Origin: Armatimonadota bacterium
GTDB lineage: Bacteria; Armatimonadota; Zipacnadia; Zipacnadales; UBA5352
Reading direction: 5' to 3'
Length of the DNA: 17,334 bases
Assembly (NCBI GenBank): GCA_034722055.1
Contig: JAYENL010000323.1
Span: 1-17,334, forward strand
Shown piece after piece: positions 1 through 17,334 of this stretch. How positions within the stretch are numbered: position 1 is the stretch's first letter; each line of letters opens with the position of its first letter. The notes beneath the pieces are model-generated. The model was given only the letters and a program-made list of their open reading frames with translations. It made no database searches and was not told where the DNA came from. Made by a program: the position numbers and the translations under genes.

Positions 1-120
1 GCTCCACGCTTCCTTCAGACGACACCTCCCGATGACGCCCCTGCGCTTCGCTCACCCTTCGCCTCCATCTGGCTGGGTAGAGGACTTGCACCTCCCGACT
101 GTCGAACATGCCCGGCACAC
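1..120 (-). mobile_element. Group II intron, 5' end (start of ribozyme domain I); the rest lies left of the window
   Basis: The reverse complement from base 120 reads GTGTGCCGGGCATGTTCGACAGTCGGGAGGTGCAAGTCCTCTACCCAGCCAGATGGAGGCGAAGGGTGAGCGAAGCGCAGGGGCGTCATCGGGAGGTGTCGTCTGAAGGAAGCGTGGAGC. It starts with the GUGYG 5' splice consensus. It also carries blocks typical of bacterial group II intron domain I: GTGTGCCnGGCATG, GGTGnAAGTCC with a GNRA loop, CGCAnGGG and TCTGAAGGAAGCG. Integrase homology starts right at the boundary. Intron class not determined. Confidence 0.85.
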
Positions 121-680
121 ACGGCAAGGGCGGCCGGGATCGCACGGTCCCGCTCCCCGATCACGCCGCCGAGACGCTCGAGACGTGGCTGGTGTACCGC
201 AAGGGCCTGGGGATCGCGAACGGTTCCGTCTTCTGCACAATCGCGCGAGGGCGGAACGTGCATCCGAAGGCGACGGCTGAAGGCCTCGGCGACGAGACCG
301 TGGTCACCGAGCTGACGCCCGGCAAGCCACTCAATCCCCGCTACATCCGCGCCCTTGTCACCCGGCTGGCCGAGAAGGCCGGCATCGAGAAGCGGGTGAC
401 GCCCCACGTGCTCAGGCACACCGCGGCCACGCGCATGCTCAAGGCGGTGGGGGACGTCCGCCGGGTCCAGGAGTTCCTCGGACATGCCGACGTTAGCACA
501 ACGCAGGTCTACACCGAGGTGCTGGGCCAGGACGTGGCCGAAGCGGTGGATGCAGTCCCCAACGTCGAGGCCGAGCCCGAGCACGAGGCCAGCGAGGCCG
601 AAGAGATCGCGGCTGAGGTCTTGGCGGCGGTGCCGGCGGAAGTAAGACACGCGTTGTCACACATGGTCAGGGATGGATAG
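121..680 (+). pseudogene. Tyrosine recombinase/integrase (XerC/XerD-like), C-terminal catalytic half, interrupted by an antisense group II intron
   Basis: Motifs GKGGRDRTVPL, TPHVLRHTAAT (HxxR) and VQEFLGHADVSTTQVY (LGH...catalytic Tyr). The ORF-track ATG at 108 lies inside the intron sequence. The N-terminal domain and box I Arg are absent from the window. Confidence 0.85.
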
Positions 681-883: not shown

Positions 884-3800
884 GTGACGAGCCATGCGAG
901 TATCCGAGATCGATGGCGCGAGCCGGTTGGTGTCCTTTCCTTCTCGCTGAGCGAAGCCAATCTCGTCGTGGTGGCTGGCGCAGGACTGAGCGCCTCAGCT
1001 GGCCTGCCCACATGGCCGGAGCTTCAGGACGCAATGCTCTCCGAGCTTGGGTCTGACGCTGCCGAGGAGAAGCCGGATGGGCCAATGGCGGCCCTGATAT
1101 ATGAGCGACAGCGCGGTCGCGATGAGTTCATCAGCTTCCTGCGGCGCCAACTCCCGCCCGCATCCCCCTCTGACGCCCATCTCGTCCTTGCAGACCTGCC
1201 CGTATCCGAGTACTTCACGACCAACTACGACAGGATCCTCGAGGTCGCGCTTGGGCAGGTAGACAAGGACCCGCTTACCATCGCCGACGACGGGAACTTC
1301 CACGAGCTGTCCTCTGCGTCTGTCCTCACACCCGCTGTGGTGAAGCTCAACGGCGAACTCGAAAACCCGGATAGCCTCATCATCACCGAGGCCGACTTCG
1401 TGGATTACGAGCAACGGCGTCCCAACATTCTACAGCACGCAATCGACAGCCTCAAGCTTCACGAGGTGCTGTTCCTGGGCGTCAGTTTCAACGACCCCTG
1501 GCTGAAGTACATGCGGAACAGGTCTCGCGCAGAGCTCGGTGGAAGCTGCCGCAAGCGGTACGTTGTCTGGCGAGACTGCTCACCTGCGGTACAGGAAGCC
1601 TACGCACAGCTTGGGTTGGAGGTCATCCAGGTTGCCGAATGGGAAGAGCTCCCGGACTTCCTCGGGGCCCTTCGGGAAGCGGCGGGTAGGCGACTTGCCG
1701 AAGCGCGTGGCGCGGGCTCGGTGCTGCGACAACTGAGTCCGCGTCACGTTGCCAAAGAACTGGGAGAACTCGCGGATCGACACTGGAAGAGTGAACTCCA
1801 GAGGATCGCGGGAAGCGCCAACTCAGGCCTCTACTCATTGGCTCAAAGGGAGTTGGCCGCACTTCTTGATCGGGTGCAGAGACCCGGACCCATGGTTGGC
1901 TCGGACGCAGTGCTCTCGGTGGCACACCGCTTGGCCGCCGAGCTCGCCCTGTCGAGCCGGACTGAGGGCTTCATCGGCGACGCGACGGAGCATCTGGCGA
2001 AGGCGCGCGATCTCTACCCAGAAGGCGACGACTCGCCAAAGCTCGTTCAAGCGCAGGCCCGACTCCATGCGGCATCCGGCGACGCCGACGCTGCTATTGA
2101 CCTCCTTCATGGGTACGAAGATCGGGAATCTGTCCTCCTGCGGTTCAGCATCCACACTGAGATGGCCTGGGCCGGTGCGGAGCCCGAGAAACATCTCAGA
2201 GCCTGCCACCGGATGCAGGAGGAGGGAGCGCTTGATCTCACGGCAACCGCCGAGGACGAAGACGTTGCGCGCATTGCAACGCTCTTCTTCGGCCTCGCCG
2301 GTGAAGCGCAGGAGCTCCGACAAGCGGCGGATGATCTCATTCGTCACAATCCCAGCGGAAGGAATCACCAGATCGCCGGGGAGGCTTTCGCACGTGCGGC
2401 TGTATCACGCTATCGAGACCTATGCGACGACTACGGTCTGCCCTTCGGCGTGCCTGTTCTCATAGACCCTGGAGAGCTGGTTGACCACAAGCTCAGCCAG
2501 AGTGCAGCGCGACACTTCGGGGATGCGGCCCGCGTGTTGGCCCAGAGAAACGCGCAAGCCGAAGCTGAGGCCGCTGCCGAGGATGCATTGAGGATCGCGG
2601 TCCAAGAGGAAATGGCCCCCCTCGCTCATGAGGTCCGCAATTGGGTCTCAGAGGGGAGTCCGGCGCTGAGGCTGGCAGCGAACAAATGGCCCACTGACGA
2701 CGAGTTCGCCGAAGGCCGAGAGACGAGCGGCTCGCTGACGCGGGCATTCGACCGTGCAGCGCCGAATGAGCTTCCAGGGCTTCTGAAGGTAGCGATGACG
2801 CTGACACTGGCAGACGAATCTGCAGCCACCGACGTGCTCAAGCTGCTCTGGCAGAACAGAAGGCTATTCACGCGCGACCCGCTCATGGCGCTCGAATGGA
2901 CGCGCGACGTCGCCCAGCTGTGTGCGTTGCTGGAAGCGCGCGAGGAGCGCGTATCGGTAGACGGTGCAGTCTTGTCTCCATCGCGTGTCATCGGGCAACT
3001 GCACCCACCTTCCGTCTTTGCGTGGTTCCCGCACGCCCTTGAGTGCCAGGCTCATCTCAGTTCGCATCCGCGGACGGAAGGGGCTCTTGAGGCCGCGCGC
3101 GCCGCTGTCGAGCGGGCGCGCGAGCTAGCGGACCCAGACAACCCAGAGATACTCCTGGCTGACTACCACGTGGCGCGCCTCAGCGACGAGGTGGCTGCGC
3201 AGACTGAGTGCGCTGAGAGACTTGTGGAACTGATGAAGACGCAACAGACCGTTGAGCTGTACTTGACGGCGCTTCTTCTTGCTGAGGACTGGCACGGCTT
3301 CCTGGCCGTGTTGGCTGAGGCAATCGAGGATGGTCTCGAGAACGAGGACTCGCTTTGGGTGCGCAACAACAGAGCCATGGCCCTGCTATATCTGCAGCGC
3401 ACGGACGAGGCGACGCGCGACCTCGAATGGGTGTGTGATCCGGTCCAGGCGGTAGAGCCCGAAGATGCCCCATACGTCAGAGATGCAGCGCACAATCTGG
3501 CAAGTGTGTACTGCCAGCAAGGTCGGTACGACGCAGCTGCGAACATGCTATGTGACGTCCGCTCGATGCTTCCTGAAGATGAGGTCGAGTTGGTGTTGAG
3601 GCAGTCGCAGGTTCTCTTGGACGCCGGCAAGGCACAGCAGGCCTTTAGTGTGCTGAAGCGGGAAGCCACCACCTATGCTGGAGTTCGAAGGTTTGATCTG
3701 CACCTGTATACTGCTGCCTTCCGTTCCGGCGACGAAGATGACCCCGTCGCTCGAGGAGCGGGCCAGCGTCTGTTCGAGGCCCCCGACGACGAATATGTCC

Positions 3801-5128
3801 GCAAGATCGTGATCCCTCGCGAGGGCACGCTCGGTGCGTTTGGGGAGATGCTGCGGGAGCGAAGCGAGGTCTTCCGTTTCGTTGAGAGCCAGTACGTTGC
3901 CGGCACGATGCCGTTCATTCCCTTCGCCTGCTCACCTGTCATCAACCGCCCAGTGTGTGAGTTGTGGTGGCGCATGGGGCGGGAGCAGATGCCTCGCTAC
4001 GTCGGCTTGTCCAGCGCTCCCGACGAGGTGGAGTGGCTAACGGAGACCAGGCCGAATGCCGCAGTCCTCGACTATACGACGCTTCTTCTCCTTTGCGACG
4101 TCGTCCCCACCGAGCTTGGGACGCCTCTGGATTTGATCGGCCAATTGCTTGAGGCCGTACTCGTACCGCACAGTCTCCGGGTGCTTCTCGACCGCGAGCA
4201 GTCTTCGCTTGCCGCTGTCATCCATCAGCCATCCCGGGTGGACGCGGCCAGAGAGGTCTATACAGCTCTGAGGAGAAGCGGCAAGCTCCGGCGAGCCCCC
4301 GCGATCACTGACCAAGCTGACCCGACCGGCGAGCTGTCCGCGCGACGTCATGCCGCGCACCACGGCCTTGTCTACGTCACCGCGTATCCGCAACAGGGAC
4401 CCGTGAGCGATGAGGAGGTCGCGTCAGTGCGCGAGTTTGCAGGCTTCCTGGAGACTCAGGGCGTGTTGTCGCGGCAAAGCCTGACGAAGCTCCAGGCTCT
4501 GGATCTCCCCGATGTGACCGCGGTTACGCCCGACTGGGATCGGCTCCGAGACGCGAGAGCGGCGGTGCTTGACCGAGGCGCACTCAACGTTCTCCTGAAG
4601 ACTGATGCGCTGGCGGACACGATTCACTGGTTAGACGTGATTCACGTACCAGAGGTCAACATCGTGCAGTTTGAGGCCTGGCAGGAGGAGAGCAGCTGGG
4701 TCGCGGGGTGCGGTGACCGGTTTGCTCAATTGCGGGAGGAACTGGAGCGTCGTGATGACATTGTCCAGTGGGTTGCATTGGGGGCCGATGACAGGATTCT
4801 CGTTGAGGATCAGCTCGGAGAGGGCGAGTGGAGCTTGTCGTGGGACTGCTTCTTCGACTTCATGAACGTGGCCGTCAAGACGGGCGCGCCACTGTGGACA
4901 GACGATCGGGCGACTCGTGCCTTCGCCGTTGAGGATCACACTGTTCGCCGCTTCGGTACTGACGCCATGATCCAATACAGCCATCGGGAGGGCCGCATTA
5001 GCGACGACCAGTATGCAGAACTGACATCACGCCTGTTGCGGGCAGGCGTTCTCTCTCTCCCCATTGATCCCATCTACCTTGCTCAGATGCTCCGAAGCGC
5101 AGGGGATGAAGATGAAGGTAGAGCTTGA
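884..5128 (+). CDS. Large multidomain protein: N-terminal SIR2-like (SIR2_2) domain, TPR-like helical repeats, two PIN-like domains (1414 aa; possibly continues into the next ORF via a frameshift)
   Basis: GTG start with GGGGAG at 869-874. SIR2 motifs: VVVAGAGLSASAGLPTW, YFTTNYD, VVKLNG, LFLGVSFNDP. TPR-like segments include NRAMALLYLQRTDEATRDLE, HNLASVYCQQGRYDAAANML and SQVLLDAGKAQQAFSVLK. PIN-like strands are AAVLDYTTLLLL...VLVPHS and AAVLDRGALNVL...IHVPE...LWTDDRATR. Confidence 0.85.
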   Translation: MTSHASIRDRWREPVGVLSFSLSEANLVVVAGAGLSASAGLPTWPELQDAMLSELGSDAAEEKPDGPMAALIYERQRGRDEFISFLRRQLPPASPSDAHLVLADLPVSEYFTTNYDRILEVALGQVDKDPLTIADDGNFHELSSASVLTPAVVKLNGELENPDSLIITEADFVDYEQRRPNILQHAIDSLKLHEVLFLGVSFNDPWLKYMRNRSRAELGGSCRKRYVVWRDCSPAVQEAYAQLGLEVIQVAEWEELPDFLGALREAAGRRLAEARGAGSVLRQLSPRHVAKELGELADRHWKSELQRIAGSANSGLYSLAQRELAALLDRVQRPGPMVGSDAVLSVAHRLAAELALSSRTEGFIGDATEHLAKARDLYPEGDDSPKLVQAQARLHAASGDADAAIDLLHGYEDRESVLLRFSIHTEMAWAGAEPEKHLRACHRMQEEGALDLTATAEDEDVARIATLFFGLAGEAQELRQAADDLIRHNPSGRNHQIAGEAFARAAVSRYRDLCDDYGLPFGVPVLIDPGELVDHKLSQSAARHFGDAARVLAQRNAQAEAEAAAEDALRIAVQEEMAPLAHEVRNWVSEGSPALRLAANKWPTDDEFAEGRETSGSLTRAFDRAAPNELPGLLKVAMTLTLADESAATDVLKLLWQNRRLFTRDPLMALEWTRDVAQLCALLEAREERVSVDGAVLSPSRVIGQLHPPSVFAWFPHALECQAHLSSHPRTEGALEAARAAVERARELADPDNPEILLADYHVARLSDEVAAQTECAERLVELMKTQQTVELYLTALLLAEDWHGFLAVLAEAIEDGLENEDSLWVRNNRAMALLYLQRTDEATRDLEWVCDPVQAVEPEDAPYVRDAAHNLASVYCQQGRYDAAANMLCDVRSMLPEDEVELVLRQSQVLLDAGKAQQAFSVLKREATTYAGVRRFDLHLYTAAFRSGDEDDPVARGAGQRLFEAPDDEYVRKIVIPREGTLGAFGEMLRERSEVFRFVESQYVAGTMPFIPFACSPVINRPVCELWWRMGREQMPRYVGLSSAPDEVEWLTETRPNAAVLDYTTLLLLCDVVPTELGTPLDLIGQLLEAVLVPHSLRVLLDREQSSLAAVIHQPSRVDAAREVYTALRRSGKLRRAPAITDQADPTGELSARRHAAHHGLVYVTAYPQQGPVSDEEVASVREFAGFLETQGVLSRQSLTKLQALDLPDVTAVTPDWDRLRDARAAVLDRGALNVLLKTDALADTIHWLDVIHVPEVNIVQFEAWQEESSWVAGCGDRFAQLREELERRDDIVQWVALGADDRILVEDQLGEGEWSLSWDCFFDFMNVAVKTGAPLWTDDRATRAFAVEDHTVRRFGTDAMIQYSHREGRISDDQYAELTSRLLRAGVLSLPIDPIYLAQMLRSAGDEDEGRA

Positions 5129-7868
5129 GCAGGCGATAGATAGCTACCGCGCGGGCCTCCTGGAGATCAAGAGGCTGACCGAAGACGAGGCAGCGCCGTA
5201 TCAGCAACCCCTGCTGGGCACAGCCACCAACGCGTACTTCAGCCGCATCGCTGAGACACTCGAGCTATGCTTCGATAGCCGCGAGAGCGTCGACGACGAA
5301 GCGCTTGCTGAGATGCTACGCGAGTTCGACCTATCACGGGCAGATGCTTCATTCAAGGGTGGACCGTGGGCCTATCTCTTTGGCGTCTTGGCTAACCTCT
5401 ATATGCGGACGAGCGCCGATGGGGAGACACGGTCCGGCATCCTCGCACGAGACGATGCGGTCGAGTTCTCGCAGTGGTGTGACCGGCTGTTCGATGCTGC
5501 TGGCTACAGCGACGAAGACCTCGCTCGGGCCTGGCGACGGGTCCTCAGGACCTCGATCAACGTGTGGGGCAATCTTGGCGACCAGCACCGCGACCAAGTG
5601 CAGACGGCCATCAGGCAGCAGCTTGCACGGTTGCTGGCTTCGGTTCCGCCCAGGTTACGTGAAGATGCCCTGGATGACGAACTCGAGGCACTGCTTGAGG
5701 AGCTCGGGCTGGGGCTGATCGAGATCGTCGACATCCAATATGAAGTAGAGGGGCGAGAAAAGCACATTCGGATTCCGACCGAGCAGCTATGGGAAGAGGC
5801 AACACGGTCTATCGTCGACGCGCTTCGCGGCCACGAGACGGGCCCTTCGGACTCGGGCCTCCGCCATATCGTCCGGGTGTCCCCGAGATCGCTCGTGATA
5901 AAGCACATCGCGGCGCCAGATGAGCTCGTTGAACTGGGATACCATCCTGAGGGCGAGGTCAGGGCACGCTTGTCTTTCCATCTCTTGAGCAGCGCTGACC
6001 GTGGCGTTCGGCAGGCCGCTTGGGAGCATGGCTTGGAGATCATCGACGCGGCTTCTGATGATCTTGCTGAAGTCGAGTTGCAGCTTTTCGATCAGACCCG
6101 AAGGAGATGGCTGGGGCTCAAGGAGAGACTGCTGACTGATGACCCGTCGGAGTACGAGCCGGCTGCGATTGAGGCCAGACGGGCGCTCGCCGGCATGCCT
6201 TCAGTCATCGCGCGTTCGATGATGGAGGCATCGGCGTTCGGCGCTGAACCAGTACTTGAGGTACTGCGGCTGGTGACGCCAGGTATAGTGCATGGCTGGT
6301 TGAAGCTGAGCCCGGAGGACTTTGCGGACGCCCAATCGCTGGAACGGGCAGCGAGCCGGCACCGGCCTAAAGGGCGATCTAGCTCCGCACTGCTTGACGA
6401 GGCAGCCATTCGACTATGCACACCGTTTCGCGACGCAGCACTATGGCGACAACGCATCTGGGACGCACTTGGGGACAATGAGCGAGGCGAGCTGATAGAC
6501 GGCCTATTGAGGCGGGCGGAGCGAACCGCCTGTGCATGCTTTGCTGCTAACGTAGCCGTGATGTGCATGGAGCAAGAGACGGCTCAGAGCGTAGTAAGGT
6601 CCACGCCTTCACTGCGAGACCGTCTCGCCGCCATCGTAGCCGATACGTTGATGCCTCACTCCCTGATGGATCGGGATGCAAAGCCGGTGCGCCCTGAGGC
6701 CGCCCAACTCCTTGAGTACAAGATCGCCGAGCGGCTGTACTACAGCTGGCGAACACGGGGAGACGAAGTTGGTCAGGGCAATTTCGAGCAGAATGCATAC
6801 CTATCCATTTGTGCTGGCAGCCTGCTGAGTTCAGTGCTCAGCCAAGCCAGCGGCGTAGCCGCCGAAGGTGAGGGCGACATGCTTGCAGAACTGGCGGAAG
6901 CGGTGAGGCTTGGTCCCGAGGCGAGTGTCCTGTGGCACTTGGAGCCGGAGGATGCGAACTCGCGCCTGAACCCTCTCCGTAACTGGAGTTCCCCATGGGC
7001 TGCGCTCCTGCTGCTGGCGGAAGCCAACGAGCATCGGGAGTTCTTCTGTTCGGATGTTGCGGATGCAGATGTAGGCAATGCTCTCTTCGCCCTGGCCGAA
7101 CAGCTGTCCGCTTCGGCTATCTTCTGGGATGTACCTTCGACGCGGCGCACATGGCTTGAGGACCATCTGAGCCCTGAGGCACACCGGCTCGCTGTGGACC
7201 TCCTGCTCGCGGCGAGGAGTCACGCAATTCCGTACTGGCCCGATTCGCGACAGGAGCGAGTCCGACGCCTCGAGGAAGGTCTCGTGCCCGAGGATCTCGA
7301 CAGGGAAGTCGCTGAGACAATCGCCGAGGGGGCTCCCGATACTGCCGCTTACGTGATGGGCTTCGGGCTTGTCTACGGTCCGCTAGACTATGACGCCTGG
7401 ATCACCCGGCTTCTTACCGTTCTCGAGCAGGATGCCGTCTGGGACCGTATAATGGATGAACCTGTGTTGCTCCACCAAGCGCTCAACGCTCTGGTTACCG
7501 CGGCGGTTGTCGCAACAACGCGGGAAGAGACGCTGCCCGACGCGCTGCGGCAACGACTTCTCAGCAATGAAGACCTTCCTCCTGACCACATCGCCCGATT
7601 CTTTCCCGCGGTCGCTCAGGCCTTGTGGGCGGGAGCCCGGCTCGATGGTGCGACCGAATGGCTTGAGAGGCGCGTTCTTGAGACCTCAGGCAGCCAGGAG
7701 TTGGCGAGCCAGTTGACTGAGCAACTCGTAGCTATCGTTGAGTCGGGCCAAGCTTTGATAGCTGTGAGAGCGTCCATCGAGGACATGCTGCGACGTCTCG
7801 CGATGCAGCCACCATTCAGCGAGTTAGCGCAACTGCGGCGCTATCGGCAGGGCGATACGGATGAGTGA
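5112..7868 (+). CDS. Large alpha-helical hypothetical protein (~918 aa); either a separate gene or the frameshifted C-terminus of the SIR2-TPR-PIN protein
   Basis: Long ORF (frame open from 5064). ATGs at 5106 and 5112, with AGGGG at 5101-5105 as a possible RBS for 5112. It overlaps the upstream stop (5128), and its own stop overlaps the next start by 8 nt. No catalytic motif recognised. Confidence 0.7.
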   Translation: MKVELEQAIDSYRAGLLEIKRLTEDEAAPYQQPLLGTATNAYFSRIAETLELCFDSRESVDDEALAEMLREFDLSRADASFKGGPWAYLFGVLANLYMRTSADGETRSGILARDDAVEFSQWCDRLFDAAGYSDEDLARAWRRVLRTSINVWGNLGDQHRDQVQTAIRQQLARLLASVPPRLREDALDDELEALLEELGLGLIEIVDIQYEVEGREKHIRIPTEQLWEEATRSIVDALRGHETGPSDSGLRHIVRVSPRSLVIKHIAAPDELVELGYHPEGEVRARLSFHLLSSADRGVRQAAWEHGLEIIDAASDDLAEVELQLFDQTRRRWLGLKERLLTDDPSEYEPAAIEARRALAGMPSVIARSMMEASAFGAEPVLEVLRLVTPGIVHGWLKLSPEDFADAQSLERAASRHRPKGRSSSALLDEAAIRLCTPFRDAALWRQRIWDALGDNERGELIDGLLRRAERTACACFAANVAVMCMEQETAQSVVRSTPSLRDRLAAIVADTLMPHSLMDRDAKPVRPEAAQLLEYKIAERLYYSWRTRGDEVGQGNFEQNAYLSICAGSLLSSVLSQASGVAAEGEGDMLAELAEAVRLGPEASVLWHLEPEDANSRLNPLRNWSSPWAALLLLAEANEHREFFCSDVADADVGNALFALAEQLSASAIFWDVPSTRRTWLEDHLSPEAHRLAVDLLLAARSHAIPYWPDSRQERVRRLEEGLVPEDLDREVAETIAEGAPDTAAYVMGFGLVYGPLDYDAWITRLLTVLEQDAVWDRIMDEPVLLHQALNALVTAAVVATTREETLPDALRQRLLSNEDLPPDHIARFFPAVAQALWAGARLDGATEWLERRVLETSGSQELASQLTEQLVAIVESGQALIAVRASIEDMLRRLAMQPPFSELAQLRRYRQGDTDE

Positions 7869-9108
7869 CGATACCCGGCATGTCATCTCGTTCCACTCCC
7901 AGAAGGGTGGAGTTGGCAAGAGCGTTTTGGCGTGGCACCTGGTGAGCCATCTCGCGAAGCCCGGGCTGCATGAAGACAGGAAGGATGAGAAGCCCCTGAG
8001 GGTCACCCTCGTCGATGGTGATCTTACCGGCACGAGCATCGCGGATGCGGAGGACCTCCGGGCAGCTCGTACCGGGACGAAGACGCCGAGCTTCAGCGAC
8101 GCCGCCACCACCGTACGCATCATCCGCGAAGAGTACCGTGGGGCCTTCCCTGACACTGGTTCGCCGCCCGTGGTCTTCCTCAACAGGCTGCTTTTGTCGG
8201 ATCCGACGGAGTTCGCACACTTGATCTGTTCTGATGTCGACGACGCTGAGCGTTATGCGGTACGCAGGCGAGCTTACCAAGCCTCATTTGCAGGGCTCCC
8301 ACACTATGCGTGGCGGACGGCAATCTCGGAGAGGCTTCGCGTGATTCCCTCATCATCTTACCCCAGGGATGTGCGCGAGATCGCGCCGCACCTGTTTCGA
8401 GAGGACATGACAAGCCACTTCAGCGACCGACTTGCGGACCTCGTTCTCACGCTTATTGGCACGCGGCACACTGATGGGGGCAAGCGGCACAACGCGCATC
8501 CGAGCATTGGCAGTGTCGAGGCTGATGCAGTCATCATCGACTCTCCACCCGGGCTCCACGGTCTATCGAGGGCGGTTCTCCAATGCCATGACGAGCTTGC
8601 CCGGCGGATATCAGCGGGTGTCACTGCGGTTGACGTCAGGAGAACCGCCGTGTTCGTCGGGACGGATGATCTCCAGGACATCGCCGCACTATCCCGCTCG
8701 TTGAACGGCATCCTGCGAGCGGCCGGGAGTGAGGACGCGCAAGTGCCGGATGGTCTAAGAAGGCTCACGCGGTTGCTACTGCTGAACAGATATCGCGACC
8801 GTGACCCATGGCCCAACGGAGCCAAGAGATTGCTCGAAGCTGCGGGGGCGCCGGGCCGTAAGTGGGACATGACCGAAGTGCGTGAGGTCGGCGGCTACTA
8901 CCACGAGAAGCTCCAGGAGTATGTCGCGGCGCCGCACCCATCGCTGGAGAGACCTCCAGGCGATCCGGAGAGTGTGTTTGCAGACATGCTCTGTGTACCC
9001 TTCGATGATGGACTCGCGAAGACGTTTAAGTCCGACCGTGCCTCAGGCATTCCGTCTTGGCAGAACGCAGATGTGCTCCTACAGCTCATTAGGGGGGTGC
9101 TCGATTGA
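7861..9108 (+). CDS. ParA/MinD-family (SIMIBI) ATPase
   Basis: Deviant Walker A VISFHSQKGGVGKS, Walker A' VTLVDGDL, LRVIPSS, Walker B VIIDSPPGL, and LLLNR. ATG overlaps the upstream stop (ATGAGTGA). Confidence 0.85.
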   Translation: MSDDTRHVISFHSQKGGVGKSVLAWHLVSHLAKPGLHEDRKDEKPLRVTLVDGDLTGTSIADAEDLRAARTGTKTPSFSDAATTVRIIREEYRGAFPDTGSPPVVFLNRLLLSDPTEFAHLICSDVDDAERYAVRRRAYQASFAGLPHYAWRTAISERLRVIPSSSYPRDVREIAPHLFREDMTSHFSDRLADLVLTLIGTRHTDGGKRHNAHPSIGSVEADAVIIDSPPGLHGLSRAVLQCHDELARRISAGVTAVDVRRTAVFVGTDDLQDIAALSRSLNGILRAAGSEDAQVPDGLRRLTRLLLLNRYRDRDPWPNGAKRLLEAAGAPGRKWDMTEVREVGGYYHEKLQEYVAAPHPSLERPPGDPESVFADMLCVPFDDGLAKTFKSDRASGIPSWQNADVLLQLIRGVLD

Positions 9109-10437
9109 ATGCGCGTTGATGACAAGTGGATGTACGGAGTCCTCCGGCGCAGTCACCTGGCCGCGCATGGCTCTGAGGTGGACCTGTCAGAGTACTACGA
9201 GAACTCAGTCGGGACGCCAGCGGTCCGCGCACCGGTGTGGCGCCAATCCTCACTGCAGGACCACATGGCCAAGGCGAAGCGCTTCCTTGGGCGCGAAGAT
9301 GCGGACGCCTTGACGTATGCAGGGGGCCTCCTGATGGGCGTGCTGGACAGGGTCTTCCCGCCATTCGCCCACTCTGGGGGTGCTCGGTGGCCCTTGCCGG
9401 TAACTCTACTGAACTGGCCATACTGTGAGTGGCTTCTCCATGCTGAAACCGACTACGAGCATTACAAGGACCACATCATCCACTCTCTCCGTGTCGCTGC
9501 GATAGGACGATGGCTGATCGGAGAATGCAACTGGGCGAGTCCAGGAAACCCTGGCCAGGGGACACTCGCAGAGGCAATCGCCAAAGCGCCGCAGGTGAAG
9601 GTATTGCTGTCAAAGCTAGGCTTGCAGTTGTCGGCCATCAGTGACCGACTGGTGCTTGCCGCATGGTGGATAGCATCGCTTTTCCACGACATCGGCTACG
9701 GCTTCTACTTGTTCGGGAAGTTAGAGCGCCATATCTGTGAGGCATTCCCGTGGTATGCCGGCGATGCGGCGGCTGGCCTTGTCCGAGGATGTCGCGTCGA
9801 GACCTTACAGAGAAGTCTGTTTCAGTCCTATCTTGAGCACCTGTCCCATGAGGCCCAGCCATGGTCACCACGTCGTCGCGCATGGGAGATCGGCCTATAC
9901 GAGTCTTGCCTCGATGGCCATTCAGCAGCGGGAGCAGTGCTGCTTCTTATGGCGTTAGATGAGACATGGGCGATGACTGGCTATGTCAGGCCGGAACTGG
10001 AGTTGATTCTCCATCTCGCTGCAGAAGCGGCCTTCTATCACGATCTGCTCCCAGTTGGCAAGACGCGTCAAGTTGCCGAGCCCAAATGCGCCGTCGGCTG
10101 GGGGGAAGGAACAACGACTTGCTCCAGAACCTACCGAGCACAGGGTCCGCTGGCTGCCATCCTGGCGCTGTGTGACCGCCTGCAGTGCTGGGGGCGGCTT
10201 TCCTTGAGACCCCGGCCGGGGCCTTACGACGCAGTTCTCGAGCGTGATGTACCTCGGGACAGCGTCGAGCTGGAGTTGCTGGAAGGCGATCCCCCGGCCC
10301 TCAATGTCGAGGCTGCCGCACTCCGGAGCAACACTGATGGGGCAGCTCGCACGGTTGACTTGGCATTCCTCATCGAGAACCGACTGATCCGTCTCGATCC
10401 CGCCCTCCACGTCGAAGAGATCCCCTGTTCTCTATGA
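9109..10437 (+). CDS. HD-domain metal-dependent phosphohydrolase-like protein
   Basis: H...HD...H...H...D pattern: KDHIIHSLRV, SLFHDIGY (H193-D194), DGHSAAGA, AFYHD, LAAILALCDRLQCWGR. ATG immediately follows the ParA-like stop (TGA ATG). Confidence 0.8.
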   Translation: MRVDDKWMYGVLRRSHLAAHGSEVDLSEYYENSVGTPAVRAPVWRQSSLQDHMAKAKRFLGREDADALTYAGGLLMGVLDRVFPPFAHSGGARWPLPVTLLNWPYCEWLLHAETDYEHYKDHIIHSLRVAAIGRWLIGECNWASPGNPGQGTLAEAIAKAPQVKVLLSKLGLQLSAISDRLVLAAWWIASLFHDIGYGFYLFGKLERHICEAFPWYAGDAAAGLVRGCRVETLQRSLFQSYLEHLSHEAQPWSPRRRAWEIGLYESCLDGHSAAGAVLLLMALDETWAMTGYVRPELELILHLAAEAAFYHDLLPVGKTRQVAEPKCAVGWGEGTTTCSRTYRAQGPLAAILALCDRLQCWGRLSLRPRPGPYDAVLERDVPRDSVELELLEGDPPALNVEAAALRSNTDGAARTVDLAFLIENRLIRLDPALHVEEIPCSL

Positions 10438-10477: not shown

Positions 10478-10940
10478 CGCGATAGGCGCCCCGCAACCGC
10501 CGGAGACCGCTTGGGCGACGAGATCGCCGGGACGAAGCCATAACCGCAAGGCTCTCCCCCCATCCCACATCGAAGCGACGGTCAAGCGCCTCACGGAATA
10601 CTGCGGCATCGACAAGCGCGTTACGCCTCACGTCCTGAGGCACACCGCAGCCACAAGAATGCTCAAGGCCGTGGGTGACGTCCGCCGCGTCCAGGAGTTC
10701 CTCGGCCATGCGGACGTGAGCACCACGCAGGTCTACGCGGAGGTGCTTGCCGAGGACGTGGCCGAGGGGGTTGATGTGGTTGCTGACGTCGAGCCCGTGC
10801 AAGGGAAGGTCAGCGACGCTGAGCAGATCGGAGCAGAACTGCTGGCGGCGCTTCCGCCGGAAGCTCGAGATGCCCCTCCGCGCCTGCTTGGGTCGGATCA
10901 GCAGCAGACCCCTGGCCTGCCTGATGCTGAGACCGAGTAG
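10478..10940 (+). pseudogene. Degraded 3' half of a tyrosine recombinase paralogous to 121-680
   Basis: 10614-10736 encodes the same 41 aa as 390-512 (KRVTPHVLRHTAATRMLKAVGDVRRVQEFLGHADVSTTQVY). Upstream similarity (LGDE at 10511) is in a different frame and followed by TAA at 10541. No 5' half. The 5' boundary is approximate. Confidence 0.85.
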
Positions 10941-11055
10941 GCTCACGACAATGCCTGAGCTGATTGTGAGCTTCGTAGCACCAACTCTGGCGTCGCTGGT
11001 CGAAAACGCGGTCGGAGGACCGGTCGCAAGGGCGGCGAACACGTACCGAGGGCGA

Positions 11056-11394
11056 ATGCGATGCAGGTTGGTGGACGTGCTCAATGCCGAGGGTGACACC
11101 CCGCTGCATGTTGCTGCACGTGAAGGACAGGCTCAGATGGCGCAACTGCTGATTGACCATGGAGCGGATACGTGGCAACTGACCCAGGAAGGCCAGACGC
11201 CGCTGGAGATTGCCGTCGCGATGGGCCGGCCGGAAACCGTGCGAGTTCTGCTTCGCGCGGGGAGCCACGATGGGCTTGTGCACGAGCAGGATACGTACAT
11301 CGTGAGGCTTGCACTCCGCTACGATCGCCCGGAAGTGCTCGACGTGATCGCCGAGGAGCAGCAGCGTTGGGACGACGAGCAGGGGTGCAGATAG
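11056..11394 (+). CDS. Small ankyrin-repeat protein (start uncertain: 10951, 11056 or 11071; could be a fragment)
   Basis: Canonical repeats NAEGDTPLHVAAREGQAQMAQLLIDHGAD and QEGQTPLEIAVAMGRPETVRVLLRAGS, plus a degenerate third (DTYIVRLALRYDRPEVLDVI). Confidence 0.75.
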   Translation: MRCRLVDVLNAEGDTPLHVAAREGQAQMAQLLIDHGADTWQLTQEGQTPLEIAVAMGRPETVRVLLRAGSHDGLVHEQDTYIVRLALRYDRPEVLDVIAEEQQRWDDEQGCR

Positions 11395-11630: not shown

Positions 11631-11692
11631 GCAGTTTCCCCACTCGCACTGCCGTGAGACGTGGCCGAGTAGCTCTATGGAGGGCATGGCAG

Positions 11693-14683
11693 ATGCAGCG
11701 TGTATTCGAGACGTGCGTGCCACGAGACGAAGTCCTCTCGGGCAAGCTCACCGATGACATGTTCGCTGCGAAGCTGGGCAGGGTCGTCGATGGCGAAGCC
11801 CCTGATGTGTACCAGGATGCGGATGTCTTCTTCGCGCGGACGTTCCCTACTGAGGGCCTGAAGTCCCTCGTCGCCCAGGTGATGTCGCGGGTAACCGACG
11901 AGGGGTCGGCTGAGGCACCAATCATCCGCCTGGAGACGTCATTCGGTGGCGGGAAGACCCACGGCCTCATCGCGCTCTATCACCTGGCTCGGAGTAACCA
12001 GTCTCTGGGGGAGCTGCCGGAGGACCTGATCGATGCTTCGCTTCTCCCGGAAGAGCAAGTCCCCTTCGCGGCGGTGGTGGGGACCGAGCTTGACCCGGTG
12101 AATGGCATCAAGCACGGGGACGTCACCACCTACACGATGTGGGGCGAGATCGCCTATCAGCTCCGCGGCGCTGAGGGCTATGCGCTCATGGAGAAGAGCG
12201 ACACCGAGGGCACCCGGCCTGGTTCCGGGGTGTGGGAGGAGTTGCTTGGCGACCGGCCGGCCATCATCTGCATCGATGAGATCGCCAACTTCCAGCGCGC
12301 CTTCGGCCGCAAGCACGCCAGCGCTGAGCAGACCGCCGCGTTCCTGCACACTCTCTTCGGAGTCGCATCCTCCTTGCCCCAGGTGTGTGTCGTCTGGACG
12401 CTTGCGACCGCGGGAGATGCCTTTGCTCATGAGAGCGAGCGTTTGGTCGCGGAGCTGGGGGAGCTGGGAAGCATCGGCGCACGCGAGGAGCTCGTCCTGA
12501 CTCCGACCGGGGACACCGAGTATGCTCCGGTCATCAATCATCGCTTGTTCGACGAAATCGACGAAGACGCGGCGCAGGACGTTGCCGACGAGTTCGTGCG
12601 GTTCTACGACGAGCAGGCGTCGCGTGGCGTGGCGCTGCCCTCAGAGGCGACCAGCGCATCGTTCAGAGCCGAGATGCAGCAGTCCTATCCCTTCCACCCA
12701 GCCACCATCGAAGTGCTCAGCCTCAAGACCGCGGCCATTCACAACTTCCAGCGCACGCGGGGCATGCTGCGCCTGCTGGCGCACGTTATCCACAATGTGT
12801 GGACGGAGGAGCCCGACGACGCGTACTTCATCCAGCCCTATCACATTGACGCCAGCGTCGAGGAGATTCGCGACGAGATCACCAGTCGGTTGGATCGGCC
12901 CGAGTACAACACCGTGGTCCAGGCTGACATACAGCGGGGCGACGGGCAGGCCCACGCGCAGCAGCTTGACGAGGAGTGGCGCGAGCGCGACAAGCCCCCT
13001 CTGGCGAAGCGCGTCGCGAACTCCATTCTGCTGCACAGCATCACGATCGGGCAGGCGCGGGGCGCGACCGAGGCCGACATCAACCTCGCCTGCGGCGTTC
13101 CCGGGCTCGACTTCGACTACATCGACCAGGCCCTCAGCGGCCTTTACGATACCTGCTGGTACATCGATCCCGACCGCACGCGCTATCGCTTCCAGACCGA
13201 GCCGCAGATCAATCGGATCATCCACGAGGAGATCCAGAACGTCGAGCGCGTCGCGGCGAAGAACGAACTGCACGACCGCATCCGCAGCGTGTTCTCGGGG
13301 AGGTTCTTCGAGACCGTCTTCTTCGCCGAGGAGCCCAACGACGTCGATGACAACGCGGGCAAGCCGAAGCTGGTCATCCTCGACTTCGACTCCGAGACCA
13401 CCGGCAGCACGCCTGAGGGCCTGCCGACACTCGTCGAGACCATCTACACCCGCACGGGCACACAGGGCAAGTTCCGCACCTACCAGAACAACCTGCTCTT
13501 CCTCGTAGCCGACCAGGCCCAGCGCGAGCCCATGATCGACGTCGCCCGGCGCTATGTCGCCCTCGATCGTTTGACCGGCCCGACCCGGATCGCCGAGTAT
13601 GACGAGCCGCAGCAGGACGTGCTCAAGGAGCGCATGGGCGACGCCGAGCTCGACCTTCGGGTCGCGGTCACGCGGGCCTACCGGCACCTGTTCTATCCCG
13701 AGCGCGGCGATAGCGGCCTCAAGCACCACATGATGGACGTCCAGGAGTCCTCGCAGGCCGACCGCGACGAGGAGAAGGTGCTCGTCGATCTGCTGCATCA
13801 GCTCAGGAAGGTCCTGATCGCTGATGATCAGCCGCTCGGCCCCACCTGGGCGAAGGACCGGGTCTGGCGGGGAGACGAGCAGGAGCTGTCAACAGCCGAG
13901 TACGCGCGCCGCTTCGCAATCAACCGTCAACTGCCCATCGTACTCACCACCGACCAGCACAAGCGCACCATCAAGGCCGGCGCGGAGGATGGCACGTGGG
14001 TCTACTACGATGGGAAGGCCGAGAGGGCCTACCACGAGGACGCGCCTCCGACGGTCAGCATCGATGAGGACCACATGCTCTACACCCCCGAACGCGCTGA
14101 GGAGCTTGGTCTGCTCGAGGAGGAACCGAGCCCTACTGGCGGCCCGGATGAGACCGGGGTGACCATTGGACCGCCGGGTGGCGGGTGGACGGCGCCCACC
14201 GGCGGCACGGGTCTCTTGATCCGTGACCGCATCTCGTGCGAGGGCACGCCCAAGAAGGCCTTCACCGACCTGCGCGACCAGTGCGAGGCCGCCGAGGTCG
14301 GGGGCCTCGGGGCGCTGAAGATCACCGTCGATGCCGTCCAGGAGATGCGCGTGCTGGCGCTGGCGCTGCCACGGCTTGTGGAGCTGCAGATGGACGCCGC
14401 GGTCGATCACGCGCGCTTTCTGGCCGAGTTCGAGGGCGGCGATCTGCAGATGGAGTGCAGGGGCCCCTGGGAGGAGCTGGGTAAGGTCCGGGACTTCATC
14501 GAGCAGTTCTCCAAGCAGGCCGACGAGCACTCGCTGAAGATCACGCTCGATCTCGTCTTCCCCAAGCCCGTCGCGCCGGATGGCGGAGAGCTTCAGCGAA
14601 TGTGCGATGCGTTTGACGACCTGCAGCTCGGGAAGATCGAGATGACCGGCCTGCCTGCGGAGGAGGCGGACGAGGATGGCTGA
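11693..14683 (+). CDS. DUF499-family AAA+ ATPase (restriction-like / BREX-related defence system)
   Basis: GGAGGG RBS at 11679-11684 favours the ATG at 11693. Family-typical N-terminus (PRDEVLSG...FAAKL...Y.DAD.FFARTFPTEGL). Walker A LETSFGGGKTHGLIALYHL, Walker B IICIDEI, and motifs SYPFHP and FQRTRGMLRLLA. Pro/Gly linker before the C-terminal domain. Confidence 0.9.
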   Translation: MQRVFETCVPRDEVLSGKLTDDMFAAKLGRVVDGEAPDVYQDADVFFARTFPTEGLKSLVAQVMSRVTDEGSAEAPIIRLETSFGGGKTHGLIALYHLARSNQSLGELPEDLIDASLLPEEQVPFAAVVGTELDPVNGIKHGDVTTYTMWGEIAYQLRGAEGYALMEKSDTEGTRPGSGVWEELLGDRPAIICIDEIANFQRAFGRKHASAEQTAAFLHTLFGVASSLPQVCVVWTLATAGDAFAHESERLVAELGELGSIGAREELVLTPTGDTEYAPVINHRLFDEIDEDAAQDVADEFVRFYDEQASRGVALPSEATSASFRAEMQQSYPFHPATIEVLSLKTAAIHNFQRTRGMLRLLAHVIHNVWTEEPDDAYFIQPYHIDASVEEIRDEITSRLDRPEYNTVVQADIQRGDGQAHAQQLDEEWRERDKPPLAKRVANSILLHSITIGQARGATEADINLACGVPGLDFDYIDQALSGLYDTCWYIDPDRTRYRFQTEPQINRIIHEEIQNVERVAAKNELHDRIRSVFSGRFFETVFFAEEPNDVDDNAGKPKLVILDFDSETTGSTPEGLPTLVETIYTRTGTQGKFRTYQNNLLFLVADQAQREPMIDVARRYVALDRLTGPTRIAEYDEPQQDVLKERMGDAELDLRVAVTRAYRHLFYPERGDSGLKHHMMDVQESSQADRDEEKVLVDLLHQLRKVLIADDQPLGPTWAKDRVWRGDEQELSTAEYARRFAINRQLPIVLTTDQHKRTIKAGAEDGTWVYYDGKAERAYHEDAPPTVSIDEDHMLYTPERAEELGLLEEEPSPTGGPDETGVTIGPPGGGWTAPTGGTGLLIRDRISCEGTPKKAFTDLRDQCEAAEVGGLGALKITVDAVQEMRVLALALPRLVELQMDAAVDHARFLAEFEGGDLQMECRGPWEELGKVRDFIEQFSKQADEHSLKITLDLVFPKPVAPDGGELQRMCDAFDDLQLGKIEMTGLPAEEADEDG

Positions 14684-15119
14684 TACCTTCGAGCTGCGCG
14701 CCGAGCAGCATCGCAACAACGAGATGAAGCTGACGCTGCTGCAGCGGCCGGCACGCAAGCGTGGCGAACAGCAGCCTGAGCCCGTCGAACTCGTCCGCAT
14801 GTGGGGGCCGCCGCTGCAGCTTGCAGGCGAGGCCATCTCGTCGATCCTGCGCGACGCAGGCGTCTCTCGTGGCGTTACCTCCCTGCGGCCGGGGGATGCC
14901 CTGGACCTGAGTGAGGCGCTGGGGACGCGGCTGGCGGTGCTGATGTTCGCGCTCAAGCCCATGCGCAAGCTCGAGCGCATCCGCACCATCGCCGAGGCCA
15001 TCCTCAATATGAGCCCGGAGGCCACCTGCTACTGGTTGTCGAAGGCCACCAATGGACTTGACTACAATACGCAGCGACGCCACATGCGCGCGCTCCGCAT
15101 CCTGCTCGCCCCGGAATGA
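14676..15119 (+). CDS. Small DUF3780-like accessory protein of DUF499 systems
   Basis: Overlaps the DUF499 stop by 8 nt. C-terminal pattern L.E..G.RLAVL...LKP...MSPEATCYWLSKA...RALRILL, plus size and position, match the small gene that follows DUF499 ATPases. Confidence 0.7.
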   Translation: MADTFELRAEQHRNNEMKLTLLQRPARKRGEQQPEPVELVRMWGPPLQLAGEAISSILRDAGVSRGVTSLRPGDALDLSEALGTRLAVLMFALKPMRKLERIRTIAEAILNMSPEATCYWLSKATNGLDYNTQRRHMRALRILLAPE

Positions 15120-15140
15120 GCCGCACGAGGGAGATCTGTC

Positions 15141-15488
15141 ATGGACCAGAGGACCACCGCGTTGCCTGAGGCGCTTCGGCGGGGGCTGGAGGAGGCCGTG
15201 GAGCGCATCGTTGAGCTGGCCGGGCCCCAGGCCGTCATCCTATTCGGCTCTCGCGCCGAGGGCCGGGCAGGAAGCGAGAGCGATGTCGATCTCCTGGTGG
15301 TGGCGGAGACCGATCAGCCCTTCCATCTGGCCGCGAGGCTCATGCCGCCTGTCCGCGACGCGCTTGCCGGGCACCACGCTGATGTCGTCGTGATTACGCC
15401 GGCCGACTGGGAGCGCCTGCGCCATATCCCGGGCCAGGTGGTGCACGAGGCCGCGCAGTATGGCGTGAGGCTCTATGAGGCAGCCTGA
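15141..15488 (+). CDS. Minimal nucleotidyltransferase (MNT), pair 1
   Basis: VILFGSRAEGRAGSESDVDLLVV (GS-x10-DxD); C-terminal GVRLYE; GGGAG RBS upstream. Confidence 0.9.
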   Translation: MDQRTTALPEALRRGLEEAVERIVELAGPQAVILFGSRAEGRAGSESDVDLLVVAETDQPFHLAARLMPPVRDALAGHHADVVVITPADWERLRHIPGQVVHEAAQYGVRLYEAA

Positions 15489-15882
15489 CGCGGTGGGTCT
15501 GTGGATGCAGCTTGCCGACCGCGACCTCCAGAAGGCCAGGCGCCTCGCGGAGCCACCTCCCTTCCCGGAGGGCGTGTGCTTCTACGCCCAGCAGGCCGCT
15601 GAGAAGGCTCTCAAGGCCTACTGCTGCGCGCTGGGAGCCGAGAGGGTGCCGCGGACTCACGACTTGGTTGACTTGGCGGAGCTGGTCGAGCAGCTTGGTG
15701 GTGAGCCCCCACGGGCTGCACCGCTCGAGTTGCTGAGCCGCTATGCCGTGGCCGCACGCTACGAGGTCCCGATACCCGCGCCGGACGATGCGGAGGAGGC
15801 GCTTCAGATGGCGGCGGACCTTTGCGCGGAATTGCTGGAGCCGCTGACCGGGAATACCAGCAACGAGGACGCTGAGGAGTAG
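15475..15882 (+). CDS. HEPN-domain protein, pair 1
   Basis: W...ADRDL..A, VCFYAQQAAEKALKA, PRTHDL, YAVAARY. Overlaps MNT1 by 14 nt, as is usual for MNT-HEPN pairs. Confidence 0.9.
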   Translation: MRQPDAVGLWMQLADRDLQKARRLAEPPPFPEGVCFYAQQAAEKALKAYCCALGAERVPRTHDLVDLAELVEQLGGEPPRAAPLELLSRYAVAARYEVPIPAPDDAEEALQMAADLCAELLEPLTGNTSNEDAEE

Positions 15883-15886
15883 CGCC

Positions 15887-16279
15887 ATGAGTGAGGCCTC
15901 GCTGGTTGACAGAGGCATGCCCCTCGCCGTCGCGGTTGACCTCCTCAACGCCATCGCGGAGATCGCCGACGACCTCCGCCCGCAGGCCATCGTCCTCTTC
16001 GGCTCCTACGCCACAGGCGAGGCGCGTGAGGACAGCGATCTCGACCTCATGATCATCGCCGAGACGGATGATCGCTGGCGGCTTGCCGGGCGGCTGTATC
16101 GGCACTGGCATGAGTTGCGCGGCCGGCTCGAACACCTGCCGCCTGCCGACATTCTCGTCTATAGCCCGGCACAGTTTGCCGAAGCGCAGGTCGTCGGCTT
16201 CCCCGCCTGGCAGGCCGCCCGAGAGGGGGTTGTAGTCTATGGGCGACTGCCCGAGCCCAGCGGGACCGTGGCTGGATAA
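15887..16279 (+). CDS. Minimal nucleotidyltransferase (MNT), pair 2
   Basis: IVLFGSYATGEAREDSDLDLMII, DILVYSP, EGVVVYG; GAGGAG RBS upstream. Confidence 0.9.
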   Translation: MSEASLVDRGMPLAVAVDLLNAIAEIADDLRPQAIVLFGSYATGEAREDSDLDLMIIAETDDRWRLAGRLYRHWHELRGRLEHLPPADILVYSPAQFAEAQVVGFPAWQAAREGVVVYGRLPEPSGTVAG

Positions 16280-16646
16280 GGCGCGGCAGGACCTCGCCGC
16301 CGCTGAGCGCATGCTGACAGAGCCGGCGCTGCCCGCGCCCGCCTGCTTTCACGCCCAGCAGGCCGCCGAGAAGGCGCTCAAAGCCGTCGCGGCGCATGCG
16401 GGGGCGCAGGACATCCCTCGCGTCCACAGTCTGCTGGAGATCGCCGCCATCGTCCAGAGCCTCAACCAGGACGTGCCCTTCGCCGCCGACGAGCTGGCAT
16501 CGCTCGATCCCTTCGCCGTACAGGTACGCTATCCGGACCTGCCGGAGCCGGGCGCGGAAATCGCCAGACAGGCCGTCGAGACCGCTCAGGCCGTGTGCCT
16601 GTGGGCCGCAGAGACCATCAGCCACACAGAAGTTGAGGAGGAGTAG
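16239..16646 (+). CDS. HEPN-domain protein, pair 2
   Basis: WLDKARQDL..A, ACFHAQQAAEKALKA, PRVHSL, FAVQVRYP. Overlaps MNT2 by 41 nt. Confidence 0.9.
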   Translation: MGDCPSPAGPWLDKARQDLAAAERMLTEPALPAPACFHAQQAAEKALKAVAAHAGAQDIPRVHSLLEIAAIVQSLNQDVPFAADELASLDPFAVQVRYPDLPEPGAEIARQAVETAQAVCLWAAETISHTEVEEE

Positions 16647-16647
16647 C

Positions 16648-17334
16648 GTGCCGGACAGCGACGACCGCCCCCAAGTGCTCATCGAGGAGTTCATGCCGGT
16701 CAAGGAGCTTGGCATTGAGTCCAAGCGCGAGAGCAGCACCGGTCATCACCCTCCGCCGAATCGATTGCATGTGTGGTGGGCCCGGCGCCCAATGACCGTG
16801 AGCCGGGCGGCGATTCTTGCCAGCATGCTTCCCGTCGATACCGATGCCAAGTGGTTCTTGAAGACGCTCGGGATCATGGGCGATCCAGTCTCGACGTATG
16901 CGCGGCTCCAACGGGCAAAGCGTAAGGGGGAGAGGGTCGAAAGCTATTCCTACGACAGAGCCTTTCAGTACACCCCGCCCCTGAGTGTGGTCGAGGAGGT
17001 GCGCGAGCGCATCGCCTCGCTATGGGGGCAGCAGGACATGGTCGTCCTCGACCCCATGGCCGGCGGGGGGAGCATCCCCTTCGAGGCCATGCGCTACGGG
17101 TTCGACACCTACGCGAACGAGCTGAATCCCGTGGCGGCGGTCATACTTGAGGCGACCCTTCGTTATCCCGCACAGTTTGGCCCCGGCCTCGCGAAGGACA
17201 TTCGGCGCTGGGCAAACGAGCTCCACGACCGGGTGCGCCCCCAACTCGCGGAGTTCTACCCGAAGCAGCCGGGTGAGGAGATCTTCGCCTACGTCTGGGC
17301 CCGCACTGTCAGGTGTCCCAACTGCGGGCTGATC
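16648..17334 (+). CDS. DUF1156-family DNA methyltransferase (5' part, runs off the window; absent from the ORF track)
   Basis: Translated by hand from GTG at 16648 (RBS GAGGAGGAG), open to the window end: MPDSDDRPQVLIEEFMPVKELGIESKRE...LHVWWARRP...VVLDPMAGGGSIPFEAMRYG...ANELNPVA...AYVWARTVRCPNCG. This gives the WWARRP signature, SAM-binding motif I and the start of a Zn ribbon. Confidence 0.92.
   Translation, partial: MPDSDDRPQVLIEEFMPVKELGIESKRESSTGHHPPPNRLHVWWARRPMTVSRAAILASMLPVDTDAKWFLKTLGIMGDPVSTYARLQRAKRKGERVESYSYDRAFQYTPPLSVVEEVRERIASLWGQQDMVVLDPMAGGGSIPFEAMRYGFDTYANELNPVAAVILEATLRYPAQFGPGLAKDIRRWANELHDRVRPQLAEFYPKQPGEEIFAYVWARTVRCPNCGLI

Follow-up and report, generated by a model that had tools for sequence, protein, structure and literature searches.

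A recurrent gene cassette of a SIR2-TPR-PIN giant, a ParA ATPase and an HD protein in an Armatimonadota genome: a candidate three-component defence system

The locus and its split giant

The 17,334-nucleotide stretch of DNA analysed here (the window) is an entire contig, JAYENL010000323.1, of the 6.1-Mb genome of an Armatimonadota bacterium (assembly GCA_034722055.1). Positions 884 to 10,437 hold four co-oriented plus-strand open reading frames (ORFs) with overlapping or abutting ends, ORF1 to ORF4 (Table 1), which a sequence-only reading had put forward as a candidate defence operon: a SIR2-TPR-PIN-PIN giant protein with a helical partner, a ParA/MinD ATPase and an HD protein. The gene layout was confirmed, and the proposed SIR2, TPR, PIN and ParA domains were borne out by profile matches, the HD domain by its fold. 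The unit consists of three genes and not four, because ORF1 and ORF2 are the two halves of one gene, which forms a single ORF of about 2,300 residues in 10/10 relatives covering the junction (one of these, L004, begins only about 20 codons before it). We conclude that the locus carries a rare, conserved three-gene unit joining two predicted protein classes: the TGP (TPR-GreA/B-C-PIN) proteins and the immune ParA ATPases.

Complete giants of the relatives measure 2295-2350 residues. ORF1 aligns with the L008 giant up to residue 1405 and ORF2 picks up at about residue 1420, with the frame change that separates them lying near 5064-5128. The sequence-only reading had taken ORF2 for a possible helical partner protein; this is ruled out, since ORF2 is the giant's own tail in the relatives. 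We also considered an assembly error, and found no support for it: contigs of three sequencing runs (X1, X2 and X3, all from one study, available as contigs only, two of them possibly the source of the assembly) span the junction without a gap, and the split is thus present in the population. The tail has no match in Pfam, PADLOC or NCBIfam, and its single-sequence fold model, made without an alignment, is not usable (predicted local distance difference test score, pLDDT, 43).

Upstream of the tail, the giant has a helical/TPR region at residues ~300-960, with TPR matches around 820-930, followed by two PIN domains. The match of ORF1 to the PIN family PF20698 has an E-value of 2e-4 and scores 21.9 bits alone (cut-off 27.8), rising to 29.2 bits with the neighbouring stretch; the L046 giant matches the same family with 30.1 bits, and the three best Atlas hits for the region are PF20698 clusters at 0.86-0.87, which serve as a lead only. 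PIN1 (~1058-1170) keeps the first Asp in 8/8 sequences but lacks the closing C-terminal acidic pair and is degenerate. PIN2 (~1226-1348; D1230, D1340, D1341) retains D1230 in 7/8 and the DDR motif in 11/11 covering sequences. No GreA/B-C domain (PF01272) was matched in ORF1 (E<=0.1) or in the three giants with full match lists, although a very divergent copy could escape such a search. As a separate observation, GreA/GreB (PF01272) gave no match at E<=1 in the 93% complete source genome, while 11/14 controls matched.

The N-terminal slot of the giant is occupied by SIR2 in 7/7 full relatives and in the window copy. Protein P0153 (2148 residues) shares the body and a portion of the tail, but an Mrr-type nuclease takes the place of the SIR2 head. 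When longer proteins were searched with the tail, there was one match, a weak sign of rarity. The 2519-residue protein P0086, considered as a giant-HD fusion, proved to be a repeat artefact. A further tail-bearing giant, in G717, has an unrecognised N-terminus and is split into 1531 and 682 residues.

The SIR2 domain and its altered active site

The SIR2 domain of ORF1 (residues ~20-250; SIR2_2 match with E 6e-21) carries GAGxS and TTNYD motifs and is nearest to ThsA (family profile E 7e-51) and KomC. The ThsA match spans residues 21-241 only, and similarity to known SIR2 effectors ends after about residue 330. The catalytic Asn, N114, is retained in the window copy, whereas the catalytic His position is occupied by N156: the window reads KLNG, while 7/7 full relatives read KLHG and keep both catalytic residues. 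The same KLNG letters are present in the contig of run X3. In PDB entry KomC(H146N), the Asn stands at the position aligned with N156. In the portions of the cited papers available to us, to which all statements drawn from them below refer, the H152A substitution abolishes the activity of ThsA, with a caveat regarding its oligomer (PMC7272460), and H146A abolishes that of KomC (PMC13454610; bioRxiv 2024.12.20.629578). By analogy, an Asn at this position would likewise be expected to kill activity, and the exchange suggests that the window copy may be detuned or decaying. The proposal of a dual effector combining SIR2 and PIN domains is doubtful for this copy, given its His-to-Asn exchange and degenerate PIN1.

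The ParA ATPase and the HD protein probably form a complex

ORF3 matches a ParA-type P-loop profile (E 1e-6). In an alignment of 20 ParA sequences, 14 of them cassette members, the S-x-KGGVGK[ST] motif with both Walker A lysines, DxDxxG, the Walker B residue D227 and N309 are invariant; K20 is found in 20/20, S13 is invariant and T56 nearly so. The motifs resemble those of the PriB2 type (MinD/FlhG side) and lack the Arg of ConB2. The ParA scan of viral contigs gave 14 loci matching in the P-loop region only. At one locus (L046:8726-9702) the ParA gene is interrupted, giving ORFs of 150 and 198 residues, while it is intact in the 87%-identical sister locus L048.

ORF4 matches an HD domain weakly in Pfam (E 0.024), and its model (pLDDT 85.9; predicted template modelling score 0.91) confirmed an HD/PDEase fold. 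In 64 near-full-length sequences, picked from 135 matches and the loci, H122, H125, H193, D194, H311 and D356 are invariant (64/64) and H271 is kept in 63/64; six putative metal ligands are retained in all of them. Judged by these conserved residues, both ParA and HD keep full active sites. The best fold match is the HD domain of PPX (Z 9.6, root-mean-square deviation 3.5, 164 residues aligned), but matches to PPX, CCA and class I phosphodiesterase (Z about 8.5) HD domains are tied at Z 8-9.6, so that the substrate cannot be named. Compared with the sequences of solved structures, HD gave no match at E<=1 and two chance matches at E<=5, and Foldseek gave none at E<=0.001; plasmids gave no HD match either. 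The distant members of this HD family in L058, L060, L065 and L066 measure 720-790 residues. Both L065 HD copies bear RyR domains, and HSP70-like genes lie upstream in L058 and L065.

Modelled together, ParA and HD reached a complex score of 0.72, against 0.00 for the best of three controls. The mark used for this score was reached by 116/157 solved and 2/215 mismatched pairs, counts that hold roughly for the alignments used here. The model runs share at least 59% of their contacts, with a partner pLDDT of at least 69. Sequence comparison found no solved relative of HD, so that a score resting on a memorised structure is less likely. The predicted interface comprises the ParA insert 107-125 and helix 176-193 on one side and the N-terminal HD helices 5-18 and 53-76 on the other. 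P115, E181 and R190 of ParA are invariant in the 14 cassette members, and E181 and R190 also in a sister clade of ParA proteins described below. The ParA surface in the model (114-125 of the insert and helix 176-193) is similar to the one that Li et al. describe as binding partners (bioRxiv 10.64898/2026.10.19.760177). On the basis of this model, ParA and HD probably bind each other.

The gene order recurs and the genes diverge together

The sequence-only reading had asked whether the gene order recurs in unrelated genomes. It does: the order giant-ParA-HD was found in at least 13 loci besides the window, in several phyla. These comprise 7/37 loci from a ParA-first scan, 5 of at least 27 from an HD-first metagenome scan, and one viral contig (1/1) that carries all three genes. 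The ParA-first scan, in which a ParA alignment was searched against one genome per species, placed the giant or its tail directly upstream of ParA in 8/37 loci (L004-L008, L019, L034 and L039), labelled Poribacteria, Pseudomonadota, Spirochaetales, Thermodesulfobacteriota and Omnitrophota. HD comes next in 7/8 of these (L004 has just its 83 opening codons), and L039 stops inside ParA. The independent scan with the HD alignment gave at least 27 loci, 11 close and 16 distant. Among the matches listed, ParA lies directly upstream in 8/8 close loci with DNA there, the other three having at most 152 bases upstream; the giant is present in 5/5 close loci with DNA beyond ParA. Among the distant loci listed, ParA is upstream in 4 of 16 and the giant in none.

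The trees of ParA, HD and tail share one unrooted topology in 7 loci. Their pairwise identities correlate with Spearman coefficients of 0.67-0.83, and 29-132 of 5040 permutations gave values as high. The cassette genes travel together and co-diverge. Tail identity falls as low as 12-25% among loci; the junction between giant and ParA is overlapping or near-abutting in 14 loci, and the flanking genes vary by locus. Restriction or Wadjet-like neighbours occur in L007, L019, L048 and L049, and an Hma-like system adjoins the cassette in the window.

The cassette is rare and patchily distributed. ParA was not found in the 60 relatives searched. Among 400 genomes of the same phylum, a strong HD match occurred in two others: as a 5'-cut remnant in a genome of the same family as the source, and in a ParA+HD pair that has no giant. 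No new complete cassette came from two additional samples of 401 genomes. Pairs of ParA and HD lacking the giant lie at L054:4203-9439, L067:105-3361, L056:5086-11596 and L111:970-3190. Such pairs include long ParA forms (632-644 residues), one of them followed by a SIR2 gene; in another, a 915-residue gene precedes ParA and the HD protein has 798 residues; yet another stands behind a helical-repeat gene.

The remaining 29 loci of the ParA-first scan consist of two weak general ParA matches and 27 members of the sister clade with other partners (L009-L018, L020-L033 and L035-L037), mostly Myxococcota by record title. There, ParA stands behind a protein of ~680 residues and is usually followed by a ~160-residue protein and a ~410-residue protein with a metallo-beta-lactamase fold. 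This set runs divergent from a GAP1-N1/double-GTPase/GASH system, with Pfam checked in L027 and L036 only. It shares with the cassette the logic of large protein, ParA and metal hydrolase, and does not appear in the accessible text of Li et al. Homology between the giant's tail and the ~680-residue protein, considered for a similar C-terminal motif, was dropped (probability under 1%).

Relation to known systems

How much of this is already described? Kaur et al. 2021 (PMC8195603) defined the TGP proteins as a predicted class with variable heads, SIR2 among them, encoded mostly by stand-alone genes and ordinarily ~1100-1500 residues long. One tested member, Agp of Bab/Agp, protects against phage T5 (bioRxiv 10.1101/2024.11.07.622273). 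The giant has the variable N-terminal effector, TPR array and PF20698-type PIN of this class; it differs in the lack of a detected GreA/B-C domain, in its two PIN domains and added tail of ~920 residues, and in that ParA follows it in 14 loci (the G717 giant excepted). Judged by these sequence features, its place is next to the predicted TGP class. Figure 2-source data 1 of Kaur et al. lists MBI4846278.1, a 2304-residue Omnitrophica protein with the architecture TM+SIR2+TPR+PIN+PIN+TM and no neighbours shown, in a table that may omit neighbours it did not annotate. In length and taxon label it agrees with the L019 giant, a match made by description only. Its row omits GreA/B-C, and the table also includes many TPR+PIN rows. 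The giant itself thus cannot be called undescribed, as the sequence-only reading had supposed.

Among the 28 ParA systems surveyed by Li et al. 2026, only APE (alpha-alpha toroid, ParA, effector) is given an HD effector in the available text. Like APE, the cassette has three genes, which include a ParA, a helical protein yet to be characterised and, as possible effector, an HD phosphoesterase. It differs in its Walker A Lys, since the ConB2 ParA of APE has Arg where K20 of the cassette is invariant, and probably in its first gene, a giant of ~2300 residues where APE has a toroid with a charged C-terminal helix. The ParA-effector systems of the ConB1 type likewise couple ParA to an enzyme gene, with PIN and sirtuin among the effectors listed, and have a Val inside Walker A, but consist of two genes and do not have HD in that list. 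PriB1 proteins have an Asn before Walker A and a Gln two residues after DxD; the cassette ParA has neither (S13 and T56, at positions read from the text).

With Thoeris ThsA and Kongming KomC the cassette shares the SIR2 domain and, in the relatives only, the KLHG His. Unlike Thoeris ThsA, DSR2 and KomC, it lacks a SLOG, TIR, HerA, Argonaute or KomB partner, and the window copy has lost the His; no SLOG or Macro domain was seen beside the ThsA-like match, and no TIR match was found among the window ORFs scanned. The absence of the usual SIR2 partners had been noted from the letters alone, together with the prediction that no complete known system would be called, and indeed no PADLOC model covers the cassette ParA, HD or tail. 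The available text of Kaur et al. 2020 (PMC7159879) holds nothing matching the cassette, and the full-text literature, mostly non-subscription, gave no description of the combination of giant, ParA and HD; how novel it is may depend on the supplements of Li et al.

A proposed mechanism and its rivals

We infer a defence function and propose, with a probability of about one half, that the cassette is an anti-invader system of three components, spread horizontally and most likely acting by abortive infection. In it, the giant would be sensor and NADase and ParA-HD an ATP-gated second arm. The TPR/helical body of the giant would sense a phage component and switch on the SIR2 NADase, leading to loss of NAD+ and growth arrest, and PIN2 would perhaps cut RNA. 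HD would dock through its N-terminal helices onto the ParA insert and helix, the surface that binds partners in other ParA proteins, and the nucleotide state of ParA would hold or release this two-metal enzyme, which may destroy a nucleotide pool or a signal. The long tail of the giant would be the likely link to ParA. In the window copy the SIR2 arm would probably be off and the giant, if expressed, would consist of two chains, so that only ParA-HD would be intact. The earlier idea of control over the giant by an ATPase switch and a phosphohydrolase is an inference. A bolder version, which we regard as doubtful, is an NLR-like split of sensing, in which the TPR/helical giant, lacking its own ATPase and bearing a killer head that can be exchanged, would recruit, through its 900-residue tail, a ParA bound to a new HD hydrolase. 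If true, it would be an actual example of ParA controlling both an NADase and an HD enzyme; the window copy, its SIR2 inactive and its tail separate, would then be a natural variant that relies solely on ParA-HD.

Several observations weigh against the three-component system. Some of the 13 loci are close kin (L046/L048, L034/L050 and L079, at 87%, 82% and 66-70%), and co-divergence of three genes is expected from plain linkage too. G322, L054, L067 and L056/L057 have ParA+HD and no giant, while in G717 (L131:690-7302) a tail-bearing giant is followed by two integrases and by neither ParA nor HD. Housekeeping genes are the neighbours in L005, L008 and L046. The separate occurrences, together with the mostly stand-alone TGP genes of Kaur et al. 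(PMC8195603), would suit two independent defence modules that once became neighbours and were co-inherited without joint function. We consider this unlikely, as the giant-ParA junction is kept in 14 loci despite the divergence of the tail and the changing flanks. The separate occurrences also speak against an equally unlikely arrangement in which ParA-HD acts as a brake, with HD clearing a nucleotide signal or by-product and the SIR2/PIN giant silent until ParA changes state on infection. The tight gene order, the cyclic-nucleotide phosphodiesterases among the fold matches of HD and the gating of ThsA and KomC by nucleotide signals (for KomC: PMC13454610, bioRxiv 2024.12.20.629578) are in its favour, but the cassette has no signal-making enzyme. 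The PriB2-like motifs of ParA, which lack the ConB2 Arg, and the housekeeping surroundings of some loci could instead point to a signalling or positioning module outside defence, where ParA would position an enzyme of nucleotide turnover together with a large scaffold. This appears very improbable in view of the rare and patchy distribution, foreign base composition, fast divergence and exchangeable SIR2/nuclease head.

Could the window copy itself be a decaying relic, with a giant reduced to a pseudogene by frame change and catalytic loss, and a cassette that no longer works in this organism? The chances of this fall just short of even; being limited to the window copy, it is compatible with the three-component system as the explanation for the family. 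The split is absent from 10/10 relatives, the SIR2 His of 7/7 relatives is replaced by the Asn that aligns with KomC(H146N), the flanking integrases are broken, and a genome of the same family has only the 5'-cut HD remnant. On the other hand, the two halves otherwise form open frames of 4.2 and 2.7 kb, and the break lies directly behind PIN2, the point at which ordinary TGP proteins end. A purine-rich stretch precedes the ORF2 ATG; the ParA, HD and PIN2 residues are intact, and G717 offers another split giant. The odds that the window copy still works are about even.

The interest of the cassette lies in linking the TGP proteins with the immune ParA ATPases, two large predicted classes of which hardly any members have been tested. 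It would allow a direct test of ParA as a switch over immune enzymes, and bears on how a TGP-like protein without an RNA-polymerase-binding domain is triggered. ParA-HD is a small, testable pair for which an interface is predicted and the active sites are intact; its HD subfamily is without a close solved relative. For bench work, the intact relatives are better suited than the split form of the window. The interest is tempered on three counts: the giant falls into a known class, immune ParA proteins were surveyed only recently, and the window copy is damaged.

Genomic surroundings of the cassette

The two integrase remnants and the adjoining DUF499/DUF1156 system reported from the sequence were confirmed (Table 1).

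Table 1. Features of the window
Feature	Coordinates	Strand	Length	Description
ORF1	884-5128	+	1414 aa	N-terminal 60% of the giant: SIR2, helical/TPR, PIN1, PIN2
ORF2	5112-7868	+	918 aa from ATG 5112	mostly helical C-terminal tail of the giant (~920 aa)
ORF3	7861-9108	+	415 aa	ParA/MinD-family ATPase
ORF4	9109-10437	+	442 aa	HD/PDEase-fold phosphohydrolase, subfamily without a name
Left integrase remnant	108-680	+		C-terminal part of a tyrosine integrase; 5' part removed by the repeat at 1-123
Right integrase remnant	10546-10940	+		76-79% identical to the left remnant
Hma-like system	11654-17334	+		DUF499 (HmaC), DUF7680, two nucleotidyltransferase-HEPN pairs, DUF1156 methylase (HmaB); runs off the contig

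The remnants on both sides of the block share 255 nucleotides at 76% identity, and at this level of divergence they do not represent a fresh target duplication. The cassette block has a GC content of 60-62%, compared to 68% for the genome, and at third codon positions of 0.67-0.70, compared to 0.82-0.86 in the integrase and Hma-like genes. Scans of the window for promoters and terminators gave nothing above chance level, and the tRNA scan found none. The Hma-like neighbour matches the HmaC (E 1e-108) and HmaB (E 7e-25) profiles; its two nucleotidyltransferase-HEPN pairs lie in tandem at 15141-16646, between DUF7680 and the DUF1156 methylase. At least 8 other contigs contain the repeat that truncates the left integrase, with 94-100% identity, and a small ankyrin-repeat ORF (10747-11394) overlaps the right remnant. 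Finally, the contig of run X3 has a divergent stretch in the HD gene (window positions 9478-9637) with many substitutions and two compensating one-base indels, which stems either from a variant allele or from a related organism.

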